44,573 nt of DNA from Pseudomonadota bacterium (GCA_026398785.1 JAPLSF010000183.1:1-44573), one strand, 5' to 3'; positions 11,822 through 38,149 are shown, numbered from the stretch's first letter. A program made the numbers and translations. Notes: generated by a model not told the origin, from the letters alone.

Positions 11822-11934
11822 GGAGGAGGGATCCAGCAACGACGCGAGATGCAGTTTCACCGGCCATTATTACCGACCGGACGCGGGAGTGGTGCCGGCG
11901 TTTGTTACCATCGCCGCACTTCCTGGAGCTGGCC

Positions 11935-14262
11935 ATGCGAATCCCATTCGTCACCCGCTGCTTGCGCACCTACCGACTGCAATCTCCGTCCCGTCCGGCG
12001 TGGACACGGCGAGCGCTGCGGGCCTGCGTCGGCATCGCCTGCGTGGTTCATGGCCTGCCCGCGCAGGCGGCTGCGGCGGAGAGCACTGTACAAGGCGCGC
12101 CGGTACCGGTTGCATCCGAGCCCGCGCGGCCCCGTATCGGGCTGGTGTTGAGCGGAGGCGGCGCGCGCGGAGCGGCTCACGTCGGCGTGATCCGCATGCT
12201 CGAGCAGATGCACATCCCGATCGACGCGATCGCCGGCACGAGCATGGGCGCCGTCGTCGGTGGACTCTATGCCGCGGGACTGAGCGGGGACGAAATCGAG
12301 CGTGTGTTCCGCGAACTCGACTGGCAGGAAGTGATCCGTGACCGCGCGCCACGGCGCGAACGCGCTTACCGCCGCAAGCAGGACGACCGCAACATCCTCG
12401 CCAAGGGCGCCCTTGGCGTGAACACGAGTCGAGGCGTCGTGCTGCCGCTCGGCCTGGTGCAGGGCCACAAGATCACGCAGGTGCTGCGCGATGCCACGGT
12501 CCGTGTCGCCGACGTGCAGGACTTCGACCGGCTGCCGACACGGTTCCGCGCGCTCGCGACCGATCTCGAGACGGGCGAGGCCGTCGTCATGGGAGACGGC
12601 GACCTGGTGACCGTCCTGCGCGCAAGCATGTCGGCCCCGGGCGTGCTCACGCCGGTCGAGAGAAACGGTCGCCTGCTGGTGGATGGCGGCCTCGTCGACA
12701 ACCTGCCCGTCGAACTCGCACAGAGCATGGGTGTCGACCGGCTCATCGTCGTCGACGTGAGCTTTCCGCTGGCGCGGCGGGATGGACTGGGTTCGGCTTT
12801 CGACATCACGAACCAGATGGTCGGCATCATGGTCCGGCGCGGCACGCTCGAATCCAAGGAGCACCTGCAGCCGGGCGACGTGCTGATTGAGCCGGACCTC
12901 GGCGCGATGACCGCGATCGAGTTCGGGCGCATGCCACAGGTGATGGAACAGGGGAAGACGGCTGCCCTGGCGCAGGCCCCTGCGCTCGCCGCGCTGTCGT
13001 TGCCCACCGCTGACTACGAGCGGTACGTCGCACAGCGCGCTCGTGCTGCGGAGCCGGTCGTGCAGGTCGCGTTCGTGCGACCGGACGCGCAGTCGCAGGC
13101 AGAGGCAAAACGGGTCGAGGCCGTCTTCGGCGATCTGGCTGGCAAGCCGCTCGACCGGCCTGAACTGCAGCAGCGCCTGGCTTCGCAGTATCGCCTCGAC
13201 GATTTCGAAACCGTCGACTACCGGATCGCACGCGACACCAACGGCGAGCGTGGACTGGAGATCGACTTGCGCCGCAAGTCCTGGGGCCCGGCGTTCCTGC
13301 GGCTCGGCGTGGGCATGGAGAACGATTACGAAGGCGGCGCCACGGCAAATGCAGCAGCGCAGCTGCGCGTGACGCGACTCAATGCGCTCGACGCCGAGTG
13401 GATCATCGATGGCCAGATCGGCGAGGAGCCGAAGCTGCAGACCGAGTTCTACCAGCCGCTGTCCCTGCGCCGGCCGTACTTCATTGCGCCGGCGTTCCGT
13501 TACGAACAAGTAACATTGCAGATCGTCAGCGACGAAGGGCAGCGGCTCGCGCGTTATCGCACTCGCGATACCGAAGTGTCGCTGGCGGTGGGCGCGGAGC
13601 TGTCGAACTGGGGCGAAGTGCGTGCGGGCATGCGGCGCGGCGACGGCAGCAGCCACGTGATGATCGGCGATCCAGGCCTGCCGACGGCCGAGTTCGACCT
13701 CGGCGGTGCCTTCGTGAATTTCGGCTACGACCGGCTCGACAGCGGCTATTTCCCGAAGCAGGGCCAGGCGTTTCGCGCGAGCTGGATCGCGGATCGCGAG
13801 TCGCTCGGCGCCACGCGGGATGCGGACATCCTGCGCGCGTCGTGGCAACTGGCGCGCAGTCGCGGCCGTTACAGCGTGGTGTGGTCGATGGACGGCGGCT
13901 CGGCCCTGGACGACCAGGTGGTCTCACCACAGGAGCTCTTCACGCTCGGCGGACTGTTCGATCTGTCCGGACTCACGCCCGACGCGAAAGTCGGCACCCA
14001 GTACGGCATCGCCCGCGCCATCGTTTACCGCCGCATCAGCCGGGGCGGCACGGGCTTCTTCGAGTTCCCGGCCTACGTCGGCTTCTCGGTGGAAGCCGGC
14101 AATGTGTGGGCGACCCGCGATGACGTGGACTTCGGCGACCTCGAGACGGGTGGCAGCCTGTTCCTCGGTGCCGAGAGTCCGTTCGGCCCGGTCTACCTGG
14201 CCGCGGGCCTCGCGAGTGGAGGCGAACGGGCCTTTTACCTCTACCTCGGCAAGACCTTCTGA
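11935..14262 (+). CDS. Patatin-like phospholipase fused to a POTRA/Omp85 beta-barrel (PlpD-like, type Vd secretion architecture)
   Basis: The patatin motifs are GLVLSGGGARGAAHVGV, the GxSxG nucleophile IAGTSMGAVVG and DGGLVDNLPV. The C-terminal half resembles an Omp85/surface-antigen barrel and ends YLYLGKTF. A GGAG Shine-Dalgarno sequence lies 7 nt upstream of ATG 11935. Confidence 0.85.
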   Translation: MRIPFVTRCLRTYRLQSPSRPAWTRRALRACVGIACVVHGLPAQAAAAESTVQGAPVPVASEPARPRIGLVLSGGGARGAAHVGVIRMLEQMHIPIDAIAGTSMGAVVGGLYAAGLSGDEIERVFRELDWQEVIRDRAPRRERAYRRKQDDRNILAKGALGVNTSRGVVLPLGLVQGHKITQVLRDATVRVADVQDFDRLPTRFRALATDLETGEAVVMGDGDLVTVLRASMSAPGVLTPVERNGRLLVDGGLVDNLPVELAQSMGVDRLIVVDVSFPLARRDGLGSAFDITNQMVGIMVRRGTLESKEHLQPGDVLIEPDLGAMTAIEFGRMPQVMEQGKTAALAQAPALAALSLPTADYERYVAQRARAAEPVVQVAFVRPDAQSQAEAKRVEAVFGDLAGKPLDRPELQQRLASQYRLDDFETVDYRIARDTNGERGLEIDLRRKSWGPAFLRLGVGMENDYEGGATANAAAQLRVTRLNALDAEWIIDGQIGEEPKLQTEFYQPLSLRRPYFIAPAFRYEQVTLQIVSDEGQRLARYRTRDTEVSLAVGAELSNWGEVRAGMRRGDGSSHVMIGDPGLPTAEFDLGGAFVNFGYDRLDSGYFPKQGQAFRASWIADRESLGATRDADILRASWQLARSRGRYSVVWSMDGGSALDDQVVSPQELFTLGGLFDLSGLTPDAKVGTQYGIARAIVYRRISRGGTGFFEFPAYVGFSVEAGNVWATRDDVDFGDLETGGSLFLGAESPFGPVYLAAGLASGGERAFYLYLGKTF

Positions 14263-22985: not shown

Positions 22986-25580
22986 TCAGAACCGGTAGTT
23001 CAGCTCGACGCCGTACGAGCTGCCGGGCGCGTTGTGGACGAACGAGCCACCGAACTCCGGTGCCGGGATGATCTCGGCGAGGTAGTCCTCGTCGCCGACG
23101 TTGCGGCCCCACGCGGTCACGCCCCACTGCTCGGCCTGCAGCGTGAGGCGGGCATTGAACACCGCGTACGGGTCGCGCACCTGCTTTGAAAATTCGCCCT
23201 GGCCGAAGCCGAAATAGCCGAACAGGTTCGGCAGGCGCTGCTCCTGCACCGGGTGGAACCAGGTCTCGCCGACGAACGAGCCGTCGATGCGCGCAATCAG
23301 CGACAGCGCATCGGTGAGCGTGAACGTGGCTTCGGCGCCGATGTTGCCCGTGTACTCCGGTGCGTACGGCACTTCGCCGCCCTCGGTGTACGGGCGGCCC
23401 GTGTACTTGTCGATCTTGCCGTCGGTGATGCCGTAACCCCCGAACACCGTGAACATGTCGTTGATCTGCCAGCGGGCGTCGATCTCGGCGCCCTTGATCG
23501 TGACTTCGTCGATGTTGGTCACGGCGCGCAGCAGGCCGAACGGGCCGGCGAAGAAATTGAAGAACTGCATGTCGTCAACCTTGGTGTAGTACAAGGCCGC
23601 ATTCACGCTGACCGACCGATCGAGGAAGTAGGACTTGAAGCCGAGTTCGGCGGCCTTCGAGAGCTCCTGCTTGAATGTGTCGTTGACGTCGGTGAGGTTG
23701 AGCTGGGACGACGCGGTGCAGGCGGGTGCGTAGACGGGTCCGTTCGGGCCGGTGGTGTTGTCGCCGAGGCAGAGCGGCGTTCTGCCGGCCAGTCCGTAGA
23801 ACGTGTCGACGGTGGCGGCGCTGCCCGACGAGTTGAAGCCGCCGCTGCGGAAACCGTAGCCGTAGGACGCGAACACCGCGAAGTCTTCGGTGAGCTTCCA
23901 GTTGGCCGTGAGCTTCGGCTGCAGCTGGTCGAACGTCTCGCTGCGGTTCGGGATGCCGGACGTCGCATACGCCGAGTTCACCGTGTAGGCCGGATTGATG
24001 TAGGGGTTGCCGCCGAATGCAAAGCTCGGCGTCTGCGCGCGGCACGACGTGAGGTCGGTTGCCGTGCAGACCGGCACGTTGTTGCTGACTTCGCGGTCTT
24101 CGCTGTCGTAACGCAGGGCGAGGGCCAGTTCGAGGTTGTCCATCACGTCGTAGGCGAGCTGGCCGAACACGGCGTAGACCTTGCTGCTGAAGTCGTCGTC
24201 GTACAGCAGGTCGGTCGGGTTCGGGCCGGCGCTCGAGACGAACGGACGGGCCTTGAAGCCCTGCGCGAGGTCGGAACCCTGCGACACGACCACGTGGCGG
24301 TCGATATCGGCGAAGTACGCCCCAGCAACCCAGCGCAGCGACTGATCGCCGGGGGAGGTGAGTCGGACTTCGAGGCTCAGGTCTTCCTGGTCGCGCTGCT
24401 GGTACTGGTAACCGCCGCAGGTAGACGGGCCGTACGGCGGCAGGAAGCCTGCTCCGCCGCCGCCTGCAGGCGTGAACCAGATGCTCGTCGGGATGCCGAA
24501 GAACGGAGCTTCGTAGCCCGGATCCTGCAGGTTCGCGTCGTTCGACGCCTGGCAGGTGGCGTCGGCCGCGTACAGCAGGAACGCGTCGCTGGTGCCGTCG
24601 GTCAGAAAGTAGTTGGTCTGGTCGTTGTAGGCCAGGTAACTCGTGAGCGTGCCGATGCCCACATCCCAGTCGCCCTTGATCGAGAGGTTGATGTTCTCCT
24701 GCTCGTTCTGCGGATCGACGTTGTTGATGTAACGGAAGTTGTGCTTGTTGGCGTCCTCGTAGAACGCGGGGCCGACGAACGGCGCGACGTCGGCGAGCGC
24801 GATCGACGCGTTGAAGTTGATGGCGCCTGAATCGAGCTGCGAGTACTTGGCCTTGACGTCGATGTCGCCACCAAGGACTTCGAACAGCAACCGGCCGGAT
24901 ACTCCGGTTTCCTCGAAGCGGTCGACGCAGTCGTCACAGTTGTTCTTGAGGTTCTTCCACTGGCCGTCGGTCTTGCGCGTGTAGGCGGAGAGCGAGCCCT
25001 TGACGCCGTCGGTGAGCCCGCCACCCAGATAGATACTGCCGTTGTAGCTGTTGTCGGAGCCGTAGCCCGCCCTGAGGTCGGCCTCGAACTCGTCGCCCGG
25101 CTTCCGCGTCGTCAGGATCAGCGCGCCGGCGAGGGCGTTGCGGCCGTAGAGCGCGCCCTGCGGTCCCTTGAGGACTTCGATTTGCGTGACGCCCGACAAC
25201 TCCTGGTTGAGCGCGTTCGGGTTGGTCTGCAGCACGCCGTCGATGACGAGCGCGAAGTTGGTCTCGGAGTCGCGGCCCGTATTGATGCCGCGGATGTTGA
25301 CCTGCATGTCGCCGGCTTCGGCGGTCTGCACCTGCGACACGCCCGTCGTCAGCGCGATGAAGTCCTGCGGACGTTGGATGCCGGCGCTCTTGATTTCTGC
25401 CGCCGTGAAGGCAGTGATCGAAACAGGCACGTCCTCGATGCGCTCTTCGCGCTGTCGCGCGGTCACCACGATTTCTTCGAGCTGACCGGTTTCTGCAGCC
25501 TGCAATACCGTCGGCACCGCGACGAGCGACGCGCCGTGCGCGGCGGCGAGGGCGAACAATCGAGTCTTGCCATGTTTCAT
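22986..25580 (-). CDS. TonB-dependent outer-membrane receptor
   Basis: It has a signal peptide, a TonB-box/plug region (LEEIVVTARQREERIEDVPVSITAF; IEVLKGPQGALYGRNALAGALIL) and an 864-aa barrel ending in the canonical aromatic terminus (ELNYRF). Confidence 0.9.
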   Translation of the reverse strand: MKHGKTRLFALAAAHGASLVAVPTVLQAAETGQLEEIVVTARQREERIEDVPVSITAFTAAEIKSAGIQRPQDFIALTTGVSQVQTAEAGDMQVNIRGINTGRDSETNFALVIDGVLQTNPNALNQELSGVTQIEVLKGPQGALYGRNALAGALILTTRKPGDEFEADLRAGYGSDNSYNGSIYLGGGLTDGVKGSLSAYTRKTDGQWKNLKNNCDDCVDRFEETGVSGRLLFEVLGGDIDVKAKYSQLDSGAINFNASIALADVAPFVGPAFYEDANKHNFRYINNVDPQNEQENINLSIKGDWDVGIGTLTSYLAYNDQTNYFLTDGTSDAFLLYAADATCQASNDANLQDPGYEAPFFGIPTSIWFTPAGGGGAGFLPPYGPSTCGGYQYQQRDQEDLSLEVRLTSPGDQSLRWVAGAYFADIDRHVVVSQGSDLAQGFKARPFVSSAGPNPTDLLYDDDFSSKVYAVFGQLAYDVMDNLELALALRYDSEDREVSNNVPVCTATDLTSCRAQTPSFAFGGNPYINPAYTVNSAYATSGIPNRSETFDQLQPKLTANWKLTEDFAVFASYGYGFRSGGFNSSGSAATVDTFYGLAGRTPLCLGDNTTGPNGPVYAPACTASSQLNLTDVNDTFKQELSKAAELGFKSYFLDRSVSVNAALYYTKVDDMQFFNFFAGPFGLLRAVTNIDEVTIKGAEIDARWQINDMFTVFGGYGITDGKIDKYTGRPYTEGGEVPYAPEYTGNIGAEATFTLTDALSLIARIDGSFVGETWFHPVQEQRLPNLFGYFGFGQGEFSKQVRDPYAVFNARLTLQAEQWGVTAWGRNVGDEDYLAEIIPAPEFGGSFVHNAPGSSYGVELNYRF

Positions 25581-28728: not shown

Positions 28729-29295
28729 ATGGCAGCGAAGAAGAAAGCGCGTCGTGCGGCGCCGCGCAAGGTCAGCAAAGCGAAGGCCGGCAAGGCCAGG
28801 CGTAAAGTCGCAACGAAGGCGAAGGCCGGCAAGGTCAAGCGCAAAGTCGTCAGGAAGGCGAAGGTCGCCAAGGCCAGGCGCAAAGTCGTCAGGAAGGCGA
28901 AGGTCACCAAGGCCAGGCGCAAGGTCGCCAAGGCCCGCAGCACACCGACCAGCCGCCGCGTCGCTGCCGTAAAGGCTGCCGCGAGGAAGGCCCCGGCCCG
29001 CACGCGTGCGGCCGTCAAGAGAGCCGTCGGTAAGTTGCCGCCGTCAGCCAAGCGCGCCCTGCGCAAGGCCGACCGCAACCTGAAGTCGGCCGAAAAGAGC
29101 ATCGTCAAGGCGGTGAAGTCCGCGCAGAAGCAGGCTTCGAAGACCGCCGCGCAGGCCGGCTCGATGGTCAATGCCGCACAGGCGTCGGCTGAGAAGCAGG
29201 CCACGTCGATGCTGGATTCGGCCAAGGAAATGGCGGCCAAGGTCAGCGAGACGGTGCAGAGCGCTGTCGGCAACCTGGTGCCGGGCGAAAAGTAG
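28729..29295 (+). CDS. Lys/Ala-rich histone-H1-like (AlgP/PhaF-tail-like) protein with a helical, phasin-like C-terminal half
   Basis: The N-terminal half is four 13-aa basic repeats (KAKAGKARRKVAT / KAKAGKVKRKVVR / KAKVAKARRKVVR / KAKVTKARRKVA). The C-terminal half is Ala/Gln/Ser/Lys-rich and helical (KSAQKQASKTAAQAGSMVNAAQASAEKQATSMLDSAKEMAAKV). Confidence 0.8.
   Translation: MAAKKKARRAAPRKVSKAKAGKARRKVATKAKAGKVKRKVVRKAKVAKARRKVVRKAKVTKARRKVAKARSTPTSRRVAAVKAAARKAPARTRAAVKRAVGKLPPSAKRALRKADRNLKSAEKSIVKAVKSAQKQASKTAAQAGSMVNAAQASAEKQATSMLDSAKEMAAKVSETVQSAVGNLVPGEK
28777..28929 (+). repeat. In-frame 39-bp tandem repeats (about four units) inside the H1-like gene
   Basis: The unit starting gcaaagtcgtcaggaaggcgaaggtc recurs at 28841 and 28880, and in diverged form at 28919, giving a period of 39 nt. 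An earlier, more diverged unit starts near 28777. Confidence 0.8.
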
Positions 29296-31406: not shown

Positions 31407-31976
31407 TCAAGCATCGTGGAGCTTTCGTTCGGCGTATTCGAGCTTGGCCCGATCGGCCGTGCCGAGCATGGTCCTCACCGGGTCGAGAAACTTCACGACC
31501 GTGGCCAGATCCTTCGCATGCCAGGCCTCAGTCGCGCCGTTCAATGCCAGACGCAGACGATTCTCGGTTGCGTAGCGGGCGGCTTCGGCGTCGCGTTGAG
31601 TGACGAGGCGCGACCAAGCTCCTTCGTCGCCACGCAGTAGCGGCACGCAATACGTTGCCAGGAGCTTTGCCATGATCTCCAGCAACTGCCGCACCGACCT
31701 CTCGTCGCGCGCCGCGTAACCCGTGGGCTGAAGACAAGCCGGGACCGAGGACGCGCGGATGACTTCGTCAAAACCGAAGTCCGGTCCGCGTGCCGCGTCG
31801 CGTCTGTTCAGGCCGATGAAGACCTCGCTTGAGCGTTGACTGTCGTGACCCACGGCCAGTTTGCAGGCCGTGGATTCGTACATGGCCAGGTCGGGCTCTT
31901 TGGCGATACGCACGAAGCCGTGCCCGGTCAGTGTGGCTCCAAGGATCTCGTCTGCGATCAAAGTGAATTCACTCAT
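31407..31976 (-). CDS. 189-aa hypothetical protein; candidate cognate immunity protein of the RHS C-terminal toxin
   Basis: ATG (31976-31974) overlaps the RHS stop TGA (31975-31973) as ATGA. The product is cytoplasmic-looking, with no signal peptide or TM segment (MSEFTLIADEILGATLTGHGFVRIAKEPDL...KLEYAERKLHDA). I recognise no domain. The gene call is solid, but the immunity role is inferred from position. Confidence 0.6.
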   Translation of the reverse strand: MSEFTLIADEILGATLTGHGFVRIAKEPDLAMYESTACKLAVGHDSQRSSEVFIGLNRRDAARGPDFGFDEVIRASSVPACLQPTGYAARDERSVRQLLEIMAKLLATYCVPLLRGDEGAWSRLVTQRDAEAARYATENRLRLALNGATEAWHAKDLATVVKFLDPVRTMLGTADRAKLEYAERKLHDA

Positions 31977-34900
31977 GGTTTCGGTGGGTGATAGGCACCC
32001 GTCTCCGCGTTGTATTGCCAACCGTGCGATTCGAGCAGCTTGCGTTCGGCATTTAGGAAACGACCGGGTGAGCCGGGCGTCGCTCCCGCCGGGATCTGAA
32101 GGCCCGACGGTGTGCGATACGAGTCGTGAATGGGTTCCTGCCGGCGTATCTCAGCGCGAAGCTTCCCTGCGTTCTGCTGCCAGTTTGCCTTCGCCGACCC
32201 GCGGTTGGGAAGGAAGAGCATCCAGTCCCCGCGCTTCCAATTTCCGGCGGCGCCGCGTGTGAGGTTTCCGTCACGACCAGCGCGGTACAGATTCAGGCCG
32301 CCTGACTCGATTGCACTCGTCGACTTCGCTGCACGCCGTAATGCCTTCGTAGGCGCCAGAATCGACTGACACGGTTTGACGACGTCGCAAACGGTGAAGC
32401 CGACATAAAGAATGGCCGTGGCGTTGTCGCCCCGTTGTGCAGCGTCGTACGCGTCCCTGGCGTCGTGGACGGACGAGAGGATCAGGACGTCGACCGCGTT
32501 GATCCCGAGATCGATGAAGAGGCGTTCGAGGTTTTCCTGCGCGTACTCGTCGTCGACAGACGTTTCTGCCCAGGTCGACGTCGGTACGCCGCTTCCTGCC
32601 CCTCCCGGCGCACCTGCATACAGGATGGTGCCGCCGCAGGTAGGTGAGAAGGTCCCCGCACCGCACAGTCCCACGCCGTTCTGCGCCGACCGGCCGGGCA
32701 ATGCGGTCGCCGGCGGCGGCGGCAAGCCGCCATGGTTAAGCAGGCCGTAGGCGAGCGAAGACAGGATCGAGTCGACAACGAATTTGCCGACATAGATCGA
32801 AAGGCCGCCGTCAACGAGGTAACCCGTGGGGTCCGTCGCGTTCAGCGGCCGGTTGCCGACGTACGCATACGGATTCACCGCCTGCGAGTCGCCCAGGTCG
32901 CCGATCAGCGGGTCGGCCGAGAGGAACCGGCCAAGTGCCGGGTCGTATACGCGACCGTTCATGTGGACGAGTCCGACGTTGTCGAGCATTTCGTGCCCGG
33001 TGAAACCCTGGCGGGTCGTGTTGGCGATGCCCAGCCAGTCCGGTGCGGTCGTTGCACTCCAGTTACCGCCGCGTCGGGTGCCGAACGTACCGAAGCTTTC
33101 CTTGGCAACCGTCACGCCCGCTTCGTTCAGCAACGTGTCGCTGCTGCCGAGGTGGTCTGGCATGACATAGGTCGTGGAACTCGTGGCATTCGAGTTGCGC
33201 GAGATGACGACGGTCGAACCGCCGGGTGTCGGCACGTAGTGCCGCCAGTACGTCACGCCGGTAGAGGTCGTGGATTCCTTCTCGAGCAGCCTGCCGAGGT
33301 ATTGCGTCGTCTCGGTGCCGTTCTGGTAGCGTGCGACCTGGCGCCAGCGCTCGTGATCGGGACCGTAGGCAATCTGGGCCTGATAACCCGGTTTGCGCAA
33401 CGTGGTTGGCAGGTTGAACGAAGCCCAGTCCTGGGCGAGGCCGTTGCGCGACGCAAGATTGCCGTTGCCGTCGTACGTGAACGTTTCACTGCCGGCGGCC
33501 GTCACTGCATGCGGTCGCGATGCGTTGCCGTAGGCGTAGCTCCCGATGTCCGATTTCTGCAGGATGTTGCCCGATGCGTCATAGCTCACGGACAGGTTCG
33601 CCGCTCCGTTCAGCGTGGAGTTCGTCACGCGATCGAGCCCGTCGTAGGTGAAGGCTTCGGCCAGGTTCTGATTCAGGTCGCGTCGCTGCAGGAGGTTGCC
33701 GGCCCCGTCCCACTGGTAGGCGAGGTTCTGGCGGGCGCTGCCGGCACCGGCGGGGCCCGCTTGCTGCGTTGTAAGGCGCTGTGTCGCCGCGTCATAGCTC
33801 GACGATCGCGAGATGGTATTGCCCGACAGCGACTCCTGGGTCGGCGCATCGAAATCGCTGACCGCGTCGAGCTTCCAGAGCGTGCGCGGCGTCGCCAGCG
33901 TGACGTCGTCGATCTGCGATGGCGCGCCGAAGCTGTACGAGTAGCGGAGCCGGAGTCGACCGCCCGATTGACCCGAGGGCACTGGACTGTACGGATAGGT
34001 CAGCGTGCCGATCTCGCCGATCGAGTTGTACGTGTAGTCGTACTTGTAGCTCTGGCCCGTCGTGATCGTGCGCTTGCTGACGCGGCCGAGGCCGTCGTAG
34101 GCGAGCGTTTCCGAATAGCCGAGGCCGGCCTTCGACTGCAATCGTCCGATGTTGTGAGCGGTCGCCGACGAGCCCCACGTCCAGGTGCTGGTGCCCTCGG
34201 GTTCGGTGCGGGACAGTCTGCGGCCGAGCGTGTCGTAGTCCGCAGCGAACGATCGCCCATTTGCGTCGGTCCAGGCGACGACTTCACCGAGCGAGTTGTG
34301 CGTAAAGATCCAAGCTCCAGCGTCCGCATCCGACCACTGCGTGCGGAACCCACGCACATCGTAGGTGCCGGTCGAGACCGCCCCGATGGCGTCCTGGATG
34401 CGATTGAGGTGACCGAGTGAGTCGTAGTCGTACCGCGTCGTGCCGCCGGGGGACGGATCCATCGCGCGACGCAGGTTGCCAGCGACATCCACGATGCGGG
34501 ACCGCGAACGACCGAGCGTGTCCGTGAGTGTCGTGGTCCGACCGGAGTAGGTGAGGCTCGAGTTGCGAACGATTGCGCCGCCGCCGTCATAGTCGCGCTC
34601 GCTGAGCGGTCGACCGAGTGGGTCGAAGATCCGGATCGTGTGGCCGTTGAGGACGCTCGCATAGGGTCGCGATTCACGGGTCATGCGCCCCGCTGCGTCG
34701 TAGTCGTACGTCCGATGCAGCCAGGTGCCGAGCGCACCGTGGTACTCCTCCAGCCGCGGGCGCTCGTAGCCGTCGTAGTAGGAATGGTGCTCGCGGATCA
34801 GCGTGCCGTCGGCCGCGTAGTTGCGGTCGTACACGAGGAAGCGAAGTTCGCCCGTGCCCCAGCATCCGGTCGTGCCGCACGACTGGAAGGTCCACGTCCG

Positions 34901-37900
34901 GCGCGTGCCGTCGCTCGCCGTCTCGTTGACCCGGCGTCCGAATGGGTCGTGTGACCACGTCGTCGCCAGCCCGTTCGGATCCGTGACGCGCGTCGGCACG
35001 CCGAAGTCGTAGCGCCATTCGTAGGTCGTCGTTGCCGCTGCCGCGTTGGTGGCGGACTCGGGCAGCTGGCAGCGGCTGCCATAGTTGAAGCTCGCCGTCC
35101 TGGCCGCCATCGCCGTACCGTTGGGGTTCGAGCCCACGGTGCGCACAGAGTTCAGGTTGCCGCAGCCGTCGAAGCCGAACGAGGTGATGACCTTCAATGC
35201 GGGGATGTTCGGTTCGACCACCTGCTGCGTGATCCGGCATGGCACCGGGTCGGTCTCGTACGTCGTCGTTTGCGTCACGGCGGACTGGTCGGGTGCAGTG
35301 CTCGTCGTCGAGCGGCTGACGGGCAGGCCCAGGCACCAGTTGCCCGACGGGTCATTCATGTAACCGAGACTCAACGTCGAGCGCCACGCGCTGTTCACGT
35401 GCGGCGAGTATGGGTCCCGGTCCCAGGTGGTGTTCTGCACCTGAGTGGGATTGCCGTAGCCGTCGCCGTACGTGAACGTCGTTGCCGCTTCCGTCACCAG
35501 CGTGCCATTGAGAGCCCCGCCGTGTTCGAACTGCCTCAGGCTGGTGGACGCGACGAAAGGGAATGCGCGCTGTTCGCTGCCCGCCGGACCCATCGCCTGC
35601 AGGCCGAGGACCGCCTGCCATTGGCGCACGGGCGTCGAGCCGTTGGCCTGGAACACGTCGCGCTGCACGTGCATTCCTGTGTATGGGAACGCCCGTGACA
35701 CGGTGTCGAGCGTGACGAGGCCCGTGCGTGTGTCCTCGATGCGTTGCGTCGCGAATCCCTGGAAGCCACGTCCTTGCAGGTGCAACTGCGCGCCGGAGTA
35801 TTGCAATCGGTTGCGGTAGACGCCGCCGGTTCCGTCGGTTGCGCTGAACTCGCTCACCACGTACAGCGGGCCCTGGAAATCGGCCGCCGGAAAGACCGCG
35901 TCGTTCAGGCGCGTGTGGTTGCTGCGCGCGATCGAAACGTAGGTCGGGTTCTGGCGCACGCCGAACCCGTCGACGAACGCCGTGGCCAGATCGGCTGGCA
36001 CAGCCGGGCCCGCGTGCAGCTGGTAGCGCAAGCGGTTGCCGTCGCGGTAAGCGAGATCGGTGAGTCCGTCGCCATCGGCGTCCAGGTCGAACCAGACGGT
36101 GGAGGTGGGCGCGCTGATACCCGTGCTGACAGGTGCAGCTGCGCCTTCGCCGGTCGAGCGCACGACGAACCACTGTCGCGTTGCGGCATCGATGTACAGC
36201 AGGTCGGCGCGACCATCGCCGTTCCAGTCCGCCGGGAGCGCCGTGTACAGCGTATTGCCGGTTGCGGCCGTTGCCCTGGTCGGGAGCTCGACAAAGGCGC
36301 CAGCGCAGTTCGAGACGAATACGGTCTGCACCTGGAGGATGTCGGAGCAGCCGTCGGCGTTCCAGTCGCCCATCGTCACCATCGACTCCTGCACCAGCAG
36401 TTTTTCGGTGCCGACTGTGAATGCGTTGCCGAAACCGTTCGACAGCAACGGCGTGGCAAAGAACTTCGAATTGCGGTCCAGCTTGTTGAAGGTCAGCGCG
36501 ACGATGTCCGCGCGGCCGTCACCGTTGAGATCCGCGACGCGCAGGTTGTCCCAGGGCGTCGCCTGCCGCAGGCTCGGTATCGTCCACACGGACTGCGCGG
36601 TCGCAGCGAACTGAACTGCGAGCGAAGTGCTCGCGGGAGCGCTGACGTTGCGGCGCACGTTGATGGTCGGCGTCAGGCCGCCGCTCTGCGCCACGAGGTC
36701 GGCGAGGCCGTCGCCGTCGAAATCCGCTGCGCCGTATTCCCCGGTGGGGATCAGGCCGGTGTTCGCGGTGGTGAAGCCCGCGTTGGTGTAACCGGCGACG
36801 TACCAATACCCGTTCTGCACGACCAGGAATTGCGTGCGGCCGTTACCGGCGAAGTTGCCCGGAATGATCGTGTGTGTCGTGCTCGTCACCAGGCCGGTGT
36901 CGAGCGGAGCGGCGAAGCCCACTGGGGTTCCGAGGAGAATGCGCCAGCTCAATTTGCCGGTGCCGGCATCGACGGGATAGAGCAGGTCCGTGACGCCATC
37001 GCCGTTCAGTTCGAGGGGCACTGGCGCCCTGGCGGTCGAGACGGCCACGCCGGTATCGACCATGGGTTGCCAGCCGCTCGCGCCGCTCTGGTAGGTGATC
37101 GCGGTGGGCTGCAGGCACGTCGAGGCTGCACACTCCTGCACACTGGCCAGTCGCAGCCGTCCCGAGACCGGGGCGGTCTCGTAGCCAAGCGCGTACGTCT
37201 TGATCGGCGTCGCTGCGTCCATGACCTGGATCGCGATCCGGTCGAGCTGGTACGGATCGCGTACCAGGTTGCCGGCGAGGTAACCCGTGGGAACGTCGCT
37301 CGCAGGACGAGCGGAATATGCGAAGTCGACGCGATAGAAAGGGCCTGCGCCGGTGGCGGTCGTCGGGTAGGCAATCGAAGCGATTCGATGGGTACCGTTC
37401 GTGTACGCGCCGTACTGCGCTTCGTTGGCGTAAGTGAGGGTGATGGCATTGCCCGTGCCGACGCCTGCCCGGTCGCGGACACGCGACAGCGCCCAGGCAC
37501 GAATCGTGGGCGACGCACCCGCATAGACGCGCGAATCGACGGTACCGCCGTACTCGTAGATCAACCCGTTCTTGGTCGTTACCGTGAATGAGGCGGGGCC
37601 GTTGCCTGCGGCGCCGTTCGCGACGATCCGCGAAAACGTCTCCACCTCGGTGGCATAGACGGCACCAGCCATGCCTTGCGTGCCGCTCACGAGCTTGAGT
37701 TGCTGGCCGTCGAGGCAGTAGCGATCGGCCAGGGTGTTGGTGACGCCGGCCGTAGCGCCGTCCTGGGCCCAGGTGCGATTGCAGCGCGCGATCGTCGAAA
37801 GCCCCGCGATCGACCAACCTACGCCAACAGAGCCGCTGCCGCCGCGGCTGGCATACACCAGCGCGAGATCGAGATCGACCTCGCCGACGCCCGGTGGCGT

Positions 37901-38149
37901 CCACAGCGGGATGCGATACGTTGCGGCACCCGAGTGCGAGACGCCGAACTCGGCGGGCGTGCGACCGGCGGTCGAAGCATCTGCGACACCGGCGAGCGCA
38001 GCGGTGGCGTAGGTGCCTGGCGTCCCCGCGCTTGCCAGCGAGCCGGACGCGCCAGCGCCGGATATGCCTGTGATCGAAGCTGCAATCAGTGCGATACCGA
38101 TCGAGCGGCCGTGCCGGGCCAGCCACTGCATCCCTGCGTCATTCCACAT
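31973..38149 (-). CDS. Giant secreted RHS-repeat toxin: signal peptide, SpvB/TcaC N-terminal domain, 7-blade FG-GAP propeller, TcdB-mid-like region, RHS/YD cocoon, RHS core and a variable C-terminal toxin (TcB-TcC-like fusion)
   Basis: - Size and start: the product is 2058 aa. A GGGAGA Shine-Dalgarno sequence lies 7 nt before ATG 38149.
- N-terminus: the signal-like segment is [20 protein letters not shown].
- SpvB-type block: [46 protein letters not shown].
- FG-GAP motifs (seven): [77 protein letters not shown].
- YD repeats: many are present, for example [56 protein letters not shown] and YDGNGNLA.
- RHS core: [11 protein letters not shown]...[33 protein letters not shown]...[19 protein letters not shown]. 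Confidence 0.95.
   Translation of the reverse strand: [2058 protein letters not shown]
31976..32818 (-). other. Variable C-terminal payload (aa 1778-2058, 281 aa) of the RHS protein, downstream of the DPTGY core boundary
   Basis: I mapped the boundary on the DNA: the Tyr codon of DPTGY is at 32819-32821. The payload opens with a hydrophobic segment ([22 protein letters not shown]) and a Gly/Pro linker. It ends in a basic region of about 110 aa ([63 protein letters not shown]...[18 protein letters not shown]). I recognise no known toxin motif. Confidence 0.6.

Follow-up and report, generated by a model that had tools for sequence, protein, structure and literature searches.

In Rhs and TcC proteins, a shell encloses the C-terminal tail, which is freed by an aspartyl protease site. 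A related modular layout is known from CdiA-CT toxins, in which an N-terminal domain for entry into the cytoplasm precedes a C-terminal nuclease and is recombined with many toxins, each accompanied by its own immunity gene. Among the Rhs/YD-repeat polymorphic toxins, a "TcdB/TcaC export" class has been defined by the combination of a signal peptide, SpvB and a propeller (Zhang et al. 2012, Biol Direct 7:18), and no immunity proteins were found in the Tc loci examined by Song et al. (2021). Here, we analyzed a DNA stretch of 44,573 nucleotides from a Pseudomonadota bacterium (GCA_026398785.1, JAPLSF010000183.1:1-44573; hereafter the window), which contains an rhs gene whose product ends in a tail of 281 amino acids (aa). 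The analysis led to the conclusion that this locus carries an undescribed toxin/immunity family on an ordinary polymorphic Rhs system, with the toxin confined to the last ~110 aa of the tail.

Translation and profile searches of the Rhs protein revealed, from the N- to the C-terminus, a signal-peptide-like segment, SpvB (PF03534, aa 71-250, E 2.7e-8), TcdB_toxin_midN (PF12256, aa 689-809, E 6.2e-7), an FG-GAP propeller (FG-GAP_3, E 2.2e-14), RHS/YD repeats forming the shell (Pfam RHS_repeat, E 1.5e-15; NCBIfam YD_repeat_2x, E 8.8e-16), the Rhs-associated core and the 281-aa tail. The first ~42 aa, with a Kyte-Doolittle 19-residue maximum of 1.61 at aa 17, are likely a Sec signal or anchor, and the combination of signal peptide, SpvB, β-propeller and RHS repeats places the carrier in the TcdB/TcaC class, a known kind of system. 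The nearest solved sequences in a PDB sequence search were Rhs cores of type VI secretion systems (T6SS). The core itself is covered by TIGR03696 (Rhs_assc_core) over aa 1710-1776 (E 2.4e-18; 66.4 bits, cut-off 32.5), the model stopping one residue before the tyrosine of the closing motif ...GRVYDPALGRFLSADP...NPYAYVGNRPLNATDPTGY, in which DPTGY occupies aa 1773-1777. The tyrosine codon, TAC, lies at 32819-32821 and exactly 281 aa are encoded beyond it (31976-32818), so that the boundary drawn by an earlier, sequence-only reading of the window is confirmed by both translation and profile. The motif and both Asp-containing segments of the presumed aspartyl autoproteolysis site are present, and, going by what is known of other Rhs and TcC proteins, we infer that the tail is enclosed by the shell and cleaved off after DPTGY. 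Four sequence hallmarks of an Rhs polymorphic toxin were found, namely RHS/YD repeats, a core with PxxxxDPxG[LY], a swapped C-terminal toxin and a downstream cognate gene, which supports the 281-aa region as the post-cleavage cargo of the protein.

The same reading had taken the 281 aa as one candidate new toxin domain with a hydrophobic start, a Gly/Pro/Cys linker and a basic end. Hydropathy, residue counts and isoelectric points (pI) agree with the compositional outline: tail aa 1-31 are hydrophobic (grand average of hydropathy, GRAVY, +0.88), aa 32-84 form a Pro/Gly/Cys linker with 8 Pro, 12 Gly and 2 Cys, and the end, aa 172-281, is rich in basic residues (pI 10.46; 11 Arg, 5 Lys and 4 Trp) and very hydrophilic (GRAVY -0.98). 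The pI of the whole tail is 8.35. The intervening aa 85-166 are acidic (pI 4.55); their description as helical stems from the sequence-only reading, both of our structure models lying outside this stretch. The extent of the proposed domain had to be revised, as only the last ~110 aa constitute the toxin domain, which is undescribed in the libraries searched; aa 1-166 belong to a separate module. When the 35 proteins of the first homologue search were mapped on the query by BLAST, many covered tail aa 1-~166 alone, and five (P0022, P0025, P0029, P0031 and P0032) covered aa ~163-281 alone, carrying the toxin part behind quite different N-termini. Clustering of the sequences that follow the module in relatives showed that one and the same pre-toxin module carries six or more unrelated tails, each ~105-120 aa long, comprising the present toxin, a "VVQRAMS...GTHYVSD" family, Ntox10 and three further types; in the close relatives P0003, P0010, P0017 and P0018, it is Ntox10 (PF15520, E 1e-40) that replaces the present toxin. 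Because relatives reuse tail aa 1-166 in front of unrelated toxins, the tail is, judged by these comparisons, not a single domain but composed of two parts, a reusable pre-toxin module and a toxin of ~110 aa. In other Rhs proteins bearing the toxin, between 109 and 318 aa lie beyond DPxG[LY], and in two of them the toxin alone makes up the cargo, with 109 aa directly after DPxGL in L058 and 124 aa in L016.

Within the pre-toxin module, four Cys residues and the pattern PP.ATA.PG.SAQ.G...CG.G.FSP.C are shared by 90% or more of the 21 relatives compared, and neither the query nor its relatives matched a Pfam family over this region. An assignment of tail aa 85-166 to PT-TG (PF14449) was considered and rejected, as the segment had no Pfam match and hhalign comparison with three PT-TG segments gave a probability of 0.4%. 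By analogy, the hydrophobic segment and the two Cys pairs would fit a passage through an oxidising periplasm. Two proteins with another cargo behind the same module, P0019 and P0026, display a toxin-like order of motifs (the β1-Gly motif, W.xN..FL, G..I.D and F..xE...L...GY). Aligned with the toxin by hhalign, the P0019 tail reached a probability of 29% (E 6e-4), which is suggestive of homology, and the P0026 tail 0.65%, which leaves homology unsupported; a superfamily wider than the toxin family is possible.

An exhaustive HMMER profile search over 1.84 billion cluster representatives (clusters at 50% identity) assigned 866 clusters to the toxin family at E<=1e-3, 576 at E<=1e-10 and 162 at E<=1e-30; a word-indexed search had recovered just a few dozen relatives. 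When one genome was scanned for each species, 113 toxin loci emerged, distributed over Gammaproteobacteria, Betaproteobacteria, Alphaproteobacteria, Bacteroidota, Verrucomicrobiota, Acidobacteriota, Myxococcota, Planctomycetota, Nitrospira, Gemmatimonadota and Spirochaetia, the top match being a metagenome-assembled genome of the Steroidobacteraceae with 95% identity, a hint at the origin of the window, and a tblastn search of plasmids returned no match. Carriers of the toxin domain include Cellvibrio mixtus J3-8, Photobacterium halotolerans DSM 18316 and Dyella subtropica. In 250 of 253 proteins, no more than 15 residues follow the domain; among the three non-C-terminal cases, P0101 (493 aa) carries it at aa 46-153, followed by ~340 aa. 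It occurs in SpvB-type Rhs proteins (~2000 aa), DUF6531-Rhs, DUF6443-Rhs, PT-HINT and PT-TG proteins as well as short proteins with a signal-peptide-like start, and public labels are mostly "hypothetical protein" or "RHS repeat-associated". The alignment separates into two subfamilies, "GGLNL[FY][KR]...PI[FY]DSY", which includes the window protein, and "TTVIGRVKDL...PIRDAS". These comparisons identify the terminal ~110 aa as a real conserved domain that is widespread across phyla and not peculiar to the window protein.

Several unusual members were also encountered. Many members of 150-190 aa (P0022, P0036, P0042, P0045, P0051, P0053 and P0055) consist of a signal-peptide-like N-terminus and the toxin domain only, and may either be secreted freely or be orphan cassettes whose starts are spurious. 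In an orthologue that is 84% identical overall (L009:8001-8330), a stretch that looks out of frame (SFKPRLRKGKRQDARAAREGPTTRTPP) separates "GDWML" from "SGLQIPAG" and costs the toxin N1989-D2009; either the toxin is pseudogenised here or the assembly is in error. The "short" toxin open reading frames (ORFs) of L003 and L007 were dismissed as separate forms, as they are frameshifted copies of the full-length orthologue.

Directly behind the toxin, the start codon of a 189-aa ORF overlaps the rhs stop as ATGA (...CCATGAGTGAATTC). Of 80 loci retrieved, 78 have a downstream ORF of 145-209 aa (mostly ~175-205 aa) that starts about -25 to +110 nt from the toxin stop; 66 of these ORFs were retrieved with the window ORF by phmmer (E<1e-3), and all 78 by jackhmmer. 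The downstream ORF thus behaves, as supported by this comparison, as the cognate immunity gene. No family for the immunity protein was found in Pfam or NCBIfam. The immunity ORFs lack a signal peptide or transmembrane segment, which argues for an antibacterial toxin-immunity pair with a cytoplasmic target, and their alignment contains no invariant residue, as would be expected of an inhibitor that acts by binding and not of an enzyme; together, these features correspond to the standard signature expected of a cytoplasmic binding-type immunity protein.

The immunity gene also bears on the question of whether the protein could instead be the BC subunit of a true Tc (ABC) toxin, with a tail acting as an anti-eukaryotic, e.g. 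insecticidal, effector that passes through a TcA pore encoded elsewhere. SpvB, TcdB_toxin_midN and FG-GAP do precede the RHS repeats as in TcB-TcC, natural B-C fusions are known (Song et al. 2021), and the pI of the whole tail would suit such an effector. The conserved gene behind the toxin is, however, at odds with the Tc loci, for which none was reported (Song et al. 2021), and no TcA-sized ORF exists in the window, where apart from rhs no ORF exceeds 916 aa and the largest neighbours checked are housekeeping genes. Likewise, the flanks of 15 related loci are devoid of a TcA-sized ORF, and the toxin also rides on DUF6531-, DUF6443-, PT-HINT- and PT-TG-type carriers. We therefore regard a Tc effector as highly improbable and retain the antibacterial, immunity-paired Rhs cargo as the preferred reading.

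To relate the toxin to named families, Pfam (2025 copy), NCBIfam (June 2026), PADLOC and PDB sequences were searched, and Foldseek was run against PDB and BFVD. Neither the 281 aa, nor the last 110 aa, nor 24-87 family members matched a toxin family in Pfam or NCBIfam, among them Ntox, Tox, ART, deaminase, HNH, REase and TIR models, or in PADLOC; scans of 24, 87 and 45 members returned Rhs_assc_core, RHS_core and PT-TG outside the toxin part, besides scattered matches in one or two members. PDB sequence and profile searches with the toxin gave nothing apart from a chance transaldolase match (E 0.046). This agrees with the sequence-only reading, which had matched the tail to no toxin signature, and the library scans and fold search it had proposed likewise produced no confident match to a named toxin family. 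Sub-threshold matches were obtained to NF040785 ("CD3324 family"; NCBIfam, an 82-aa model of no known function), which matched 17 of 87 members (including P0049 and P0234; best E 8e-4) in the helix 2-β3 core, scored 12-14 bits against a cut-off of 65 in two members examined singly, and did not match the window toxin itself; it may be a remote relative. A full-text literature search with the motif strings FLNAER and GGLNLF/Y led to unrelated papers only. The toxin and immunity families are thus new to the curated libraries searched, with a remote link of the toxin to a named family still conceivable.

Individual motif ideas were judged by eye and discarded. The ART R-S-E triad is incompatible with the residue order and the predicted fold, and for PD-(D/E)xK no strand carries ExK. 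For GIY-YIG, "VIGRVKDL" and "ER..L...GW.YN" resemble UvrC motifs, but crossover helices take the place of the β-hairpin core, a conserved GIY strand is missing and no GIY-YIG protein appeared in the Foldseek results. Toprim, PIN and resolvase lack their signature residues, and a ricin-like EAAR has the wrong spacing and size.

Conservation was assessed in an alignment of 45 diverse members from both subfamilies. N1993, F2031, E2035 and R2036 are invariant (45/45), the position of D2009 is D or E in all members and that of D1975 in 43, and R1998 and W2044 (44/45 each) as well as N1989 and W1990 (43/45 each) are almost as well preserved. E2035-R2036 is a candidate catalytic pair, and the overall pattern of conservation in the alignment is enzyme-like. 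The predicted structure is compatible with this. AlphaFold (AF2) modelling improved from a predicted local distance difference test (pLDDT) of 65 with a 24-sequence alignment to 81.3 with 87 sequences, at a predicted template modelling score (pTM) of 0.75, and gave a small α/β domain with the elements β1-α1-β2-α2-β3-long loop-α3-β4-β5, in which β4-β5 form a hairpin. According to the secondary-structure string, most conserved polar residues lie just past β-strands or at helix starts, positions that in the model would correspond to those where Rossmann-like enzymes hold their active sites; D1975 is an exception, lying just before β2.

A terminal domain without enzymatic activity, acting as a stoichiometric block of an essential cytoplasmic machine or disturbing membranes with the help of the hydrophobic segment at the start of the tail, would account for the lack of a known catalytic motif and of a fold match, and such a segment does open the tail. 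The invariance of E2035, R2036 and N1993 across very divergent members is, in contrast, typical of active sites, many carriers have the toxin without the hydrophobic module, and the domain itself is very hydrophilic, which renders a non-enzymatic mode of action very improbable compared with an enzyme.

With regard to the chemistry, the family is basic throughout (median pI 9.86; above 9 in 86% of members), and because this is combined with three conserved carboxylates, two Arg and two Asn, an enzyme whose substrate is nucleic acid or a nucleotide is favoured and appears probable. Within this frame, we tentatively prefer a metal-dependent nuclease over a nucleotide or NAD glycosidase, as a plausible assignment that falls short of being probable in its own right; D1975, D2009 and E2035 would provide the carboxylates, and R1998, R2036, N1989 and N1993 would hold the phosphate.

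The competing assignment is a nucleotide N-glycosidase or NAD(P)+-consuming enzyme of flavodoxin-like or Rossmann-like fold, which would drain a cofactor or nucleotide pool without cutting nucleic acid, in the manner of nucleoside 2-deoxyribosyltransferases (NDT), TIR or ADP-ribosyl-cyclase (ARC)-type toxins, with E2035 as the catalytic residue and conserved Trp, Phe and Tyr stacking on the base. The absolutely invariant Glu, the β/α alternation of the model and a Gly-Ser loop where helix 2 begins, resembling a phosphate-binding site, speak for it, and among the sub-threshold Foldseek matches NDTs recur (4mcj with the first model, template modelling score (TM) 0.36, E 0.64; four of the top 28 BFVD matches, TM 0.38-0.43), together with EIIA-Man, Rho and one TIR-APAZ. 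All of these matches are nevertheless non-significant (E 0.6-4, TM < 0.5): the best NDT superposition, TM 0.43 at E 1.6 in BFVD, stays below TM >= 0.5 and E < 1e-3, and the model of pLDDT 81 found no significant match in PDB (best E 0.76, TM <=0.42) or BFVD (best E 0.81, TM 0.43), and neither model gave any match below E 0.49 in these two databases. No TIR, NDT or ARC model of Pfam matches any of 45-87 members, and three conserved carboxylates together with a pI near 10 would better suit a metal-dependent enzyme that binds a polyanion. Thus, a glycosidase seems rather unlikely, and the metal-dependent nuclease remains our working assignment.

Starting from the observed anatomy, module swapping, family size, C-terminal position, immunity-gene linkage and enzyme-like conservation, we propose that autoproteolysis after ...DPTGY would free a two-part polypeptide from the RHS cocoon. 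By analogy with CdiA-CT entry domains, tail aa 1-166 may then help the cargo to exit the cocoon and to reach the target cytoplasm across the inner membrane, where the last ~110 aa, a small basic α/β enzyme domain, would poison the competitor bacterium. The producer would be shielded by the 189-aa immunity protein, translationally coupled to rhs, most likely via direct binding. As an overall explanation, a two-part Rhs cargo delivering an antibacterial toxin with its immunity protein, directed at nucleic acid or nucleotides, is in our view the probable one. Several points weigh against it. The toxin domain has neither a conserved His nor a known nuclease motif, Foldseek returned no nuclease or other enzyme at a significant score, and its sub-threshold matches point, if anywhere, to nucleotide-binding Rossmann-like folds and not to classical nucleases. 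The case for the entry role of tail aa 1-166 consists of analogy and the conserved Cys residues. A more far-reaching interpretation would make the toxin the first representative of an enzyme fold and toxin class not described so far, whose chemistry would be new among interbacterial toxins, and would add an undescribed immunity fold of ~190 aa, a new route by which a BC-fusion cocoon delivers cargo into bacteria and a Cys-bearing import module of 166 aa. It draws on the invariant E-R pair, the two further carboxylates, the Rossmann-like α/β core and the lack of a TcA gene in the window, and we consider it doubtful, if somewhat less so than a glycosidase.

The coordinates of all features are compiled in Table 1. 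Further neighbours examined comprise genes for a phosphoenolpyruvate (PEP) carboxylase-like protein, an oxidoreductase, PAP2, a peptidase S9 and ABC-F. Between the PEP carboxylase-like gene, identified by eye from its sequence, and the oxidoreductase gene, a repetitive Lys/Ala/Arg-rich ORF of 188 aa (MAAKKKARRAAPRKVSKAKAGKARRKV...; 28729-29295, plus strand) was noticed, which resembles histone H1 or AlgP.

Table 1. Features of the rhs locus and of neighbouring genes in the window (positions counted from its first nucleotide).
Feature	Position	Strand	Basis or remark
rhs gene	31973..38149	-	2058 aa; ORF listing and translation
N-terminal ~42 aa with hydrophobic segment (SIGIALIAASITGISGAGA...ASA)	38024..38149	-	read from sequence
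Rhs-associated core, aa 1710-1777 (GRVYDPALGRFLSADP ... DPTGY)	32819..33022	-	TIGR03696
Pre-toxin module (tail aa 1-166)	32321..32818	-	BLAST mapping of 35 homologues
Hydrophobic segment of pre-toxin module	32726-32818	-	composition
Pro/Gly/Cys linker of pre-toxin module	32567-32725	-	composition; contains PPPP
Acidic part of pre-toxin module	32321-32566	-	composition
Toxin domain (tail aa 172-281; protein aa 1949-2058)	31976..32305	-	"GGLNL[FY][KR] ... PI[FY]DSY ... FLNAER" subfamily
Codons of E2035-R2036 (candidate catalytic pair)	32042..32047	-	invariant 45/45; start of helix 3
Putative cognate immunity gene, 189 aa (MSEFTLIADEILG...)	31407..31976	-	ATG overlaps rhs TGA stop (CC-ATG-A)
PlpD-like patatin	11902-14262	+	PDB 5fqu, E 1e-86; ordinary neighbour, unrelated to rhs
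TonB-dependent receptor	22986-25580	-	ordinary neighbour, unrelated to rhs

With hundreds of clusters in about ten phyla, the toxin and immunity families present themselves as a target for characterisation, for which the present analysis delivers domain borders, a minimal natural version of 109 aa, candidate residues for catalysis and an immunity partner. Should the chemistry prove new, an antibacterial activity and possibly an enzyme tool would be added, and annotation would gain in any case, most members now being labelled "hypothetical" or just "RHS repeat-associated". Tc-like BC-fusion cocoons with immunity-paired cargo, and without TcA in the window, moreover raise a question of delivery, since the pairing with an immunity protein argues for an antibacterial cargo.

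Compared with described toxins, the small alternating β/α domain of the toxin model recalls NDTs and flavodoxin-like nucleotide enzymes, from which it is set apart by TM values of 0.36-0.43 at E > 0.6, the lack of a sequence-profile match and its β4-β5 hairpin. The immunity proteins of PT1-PT9 measure 116-157 aa, one of them being DUF4279, and PT5 resembles helical proteins (Nachmias et al.); compared by description, the window family differs from these in its immunity protein of ~190 aa, in fold hints and in taxa, and the toxin had no PDB sequence match to the solved PT1 and PT7. Ntox10, although it rides on the same pre-toxin module in close relatives, is unrelated in sequence to the window toxin, which has no Pfam model. 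With the Tc TcB-TcC cocoon (Photorhabdus TcdB2-TccC3), in which aspartyl autoproteolysis frees an encapsulated hypervariable tail of 200-400 aa, the window protein shares SpvB and TcdB_midN, the propeller and the RHS shell, a likeness drawn here from sequence alone; it differs by the fusion of B and C in one 2058-aa protein, the absence of a TcA gene from the window, the conserved immunity gene and an RHS part that is nearer in sequence to T6SS Rhs cores. The two-part released tail, with a conserved N-terminal part swapped among C-terminal toxins with immunity genes, is shared with CdiA-CT, and the 166-aa pre-toxin module may, by analogy, play in Rhs proteins the part that entry domains play in CdiA; the likeness is one of layout, the carrier being an Rhs protein rather than a type V secretion system (T5SS) filament, with an entry function that is presumed here. 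Closest of all is the TcdB/TcaC class, with which the system has in common the signal peptide, SpvB, the integrin-like β-propeller, RHS repeats, the DPxG[LY] core, a variable toxin and a downstream immunity gene. Beyond this shared framework, its toxin and immunity domains fall outside the families catalogued by Zhang et al. (2012) or Pfam, and an extra 166-aa pre-toxin module is inserted between the cleavage site and the toxin.

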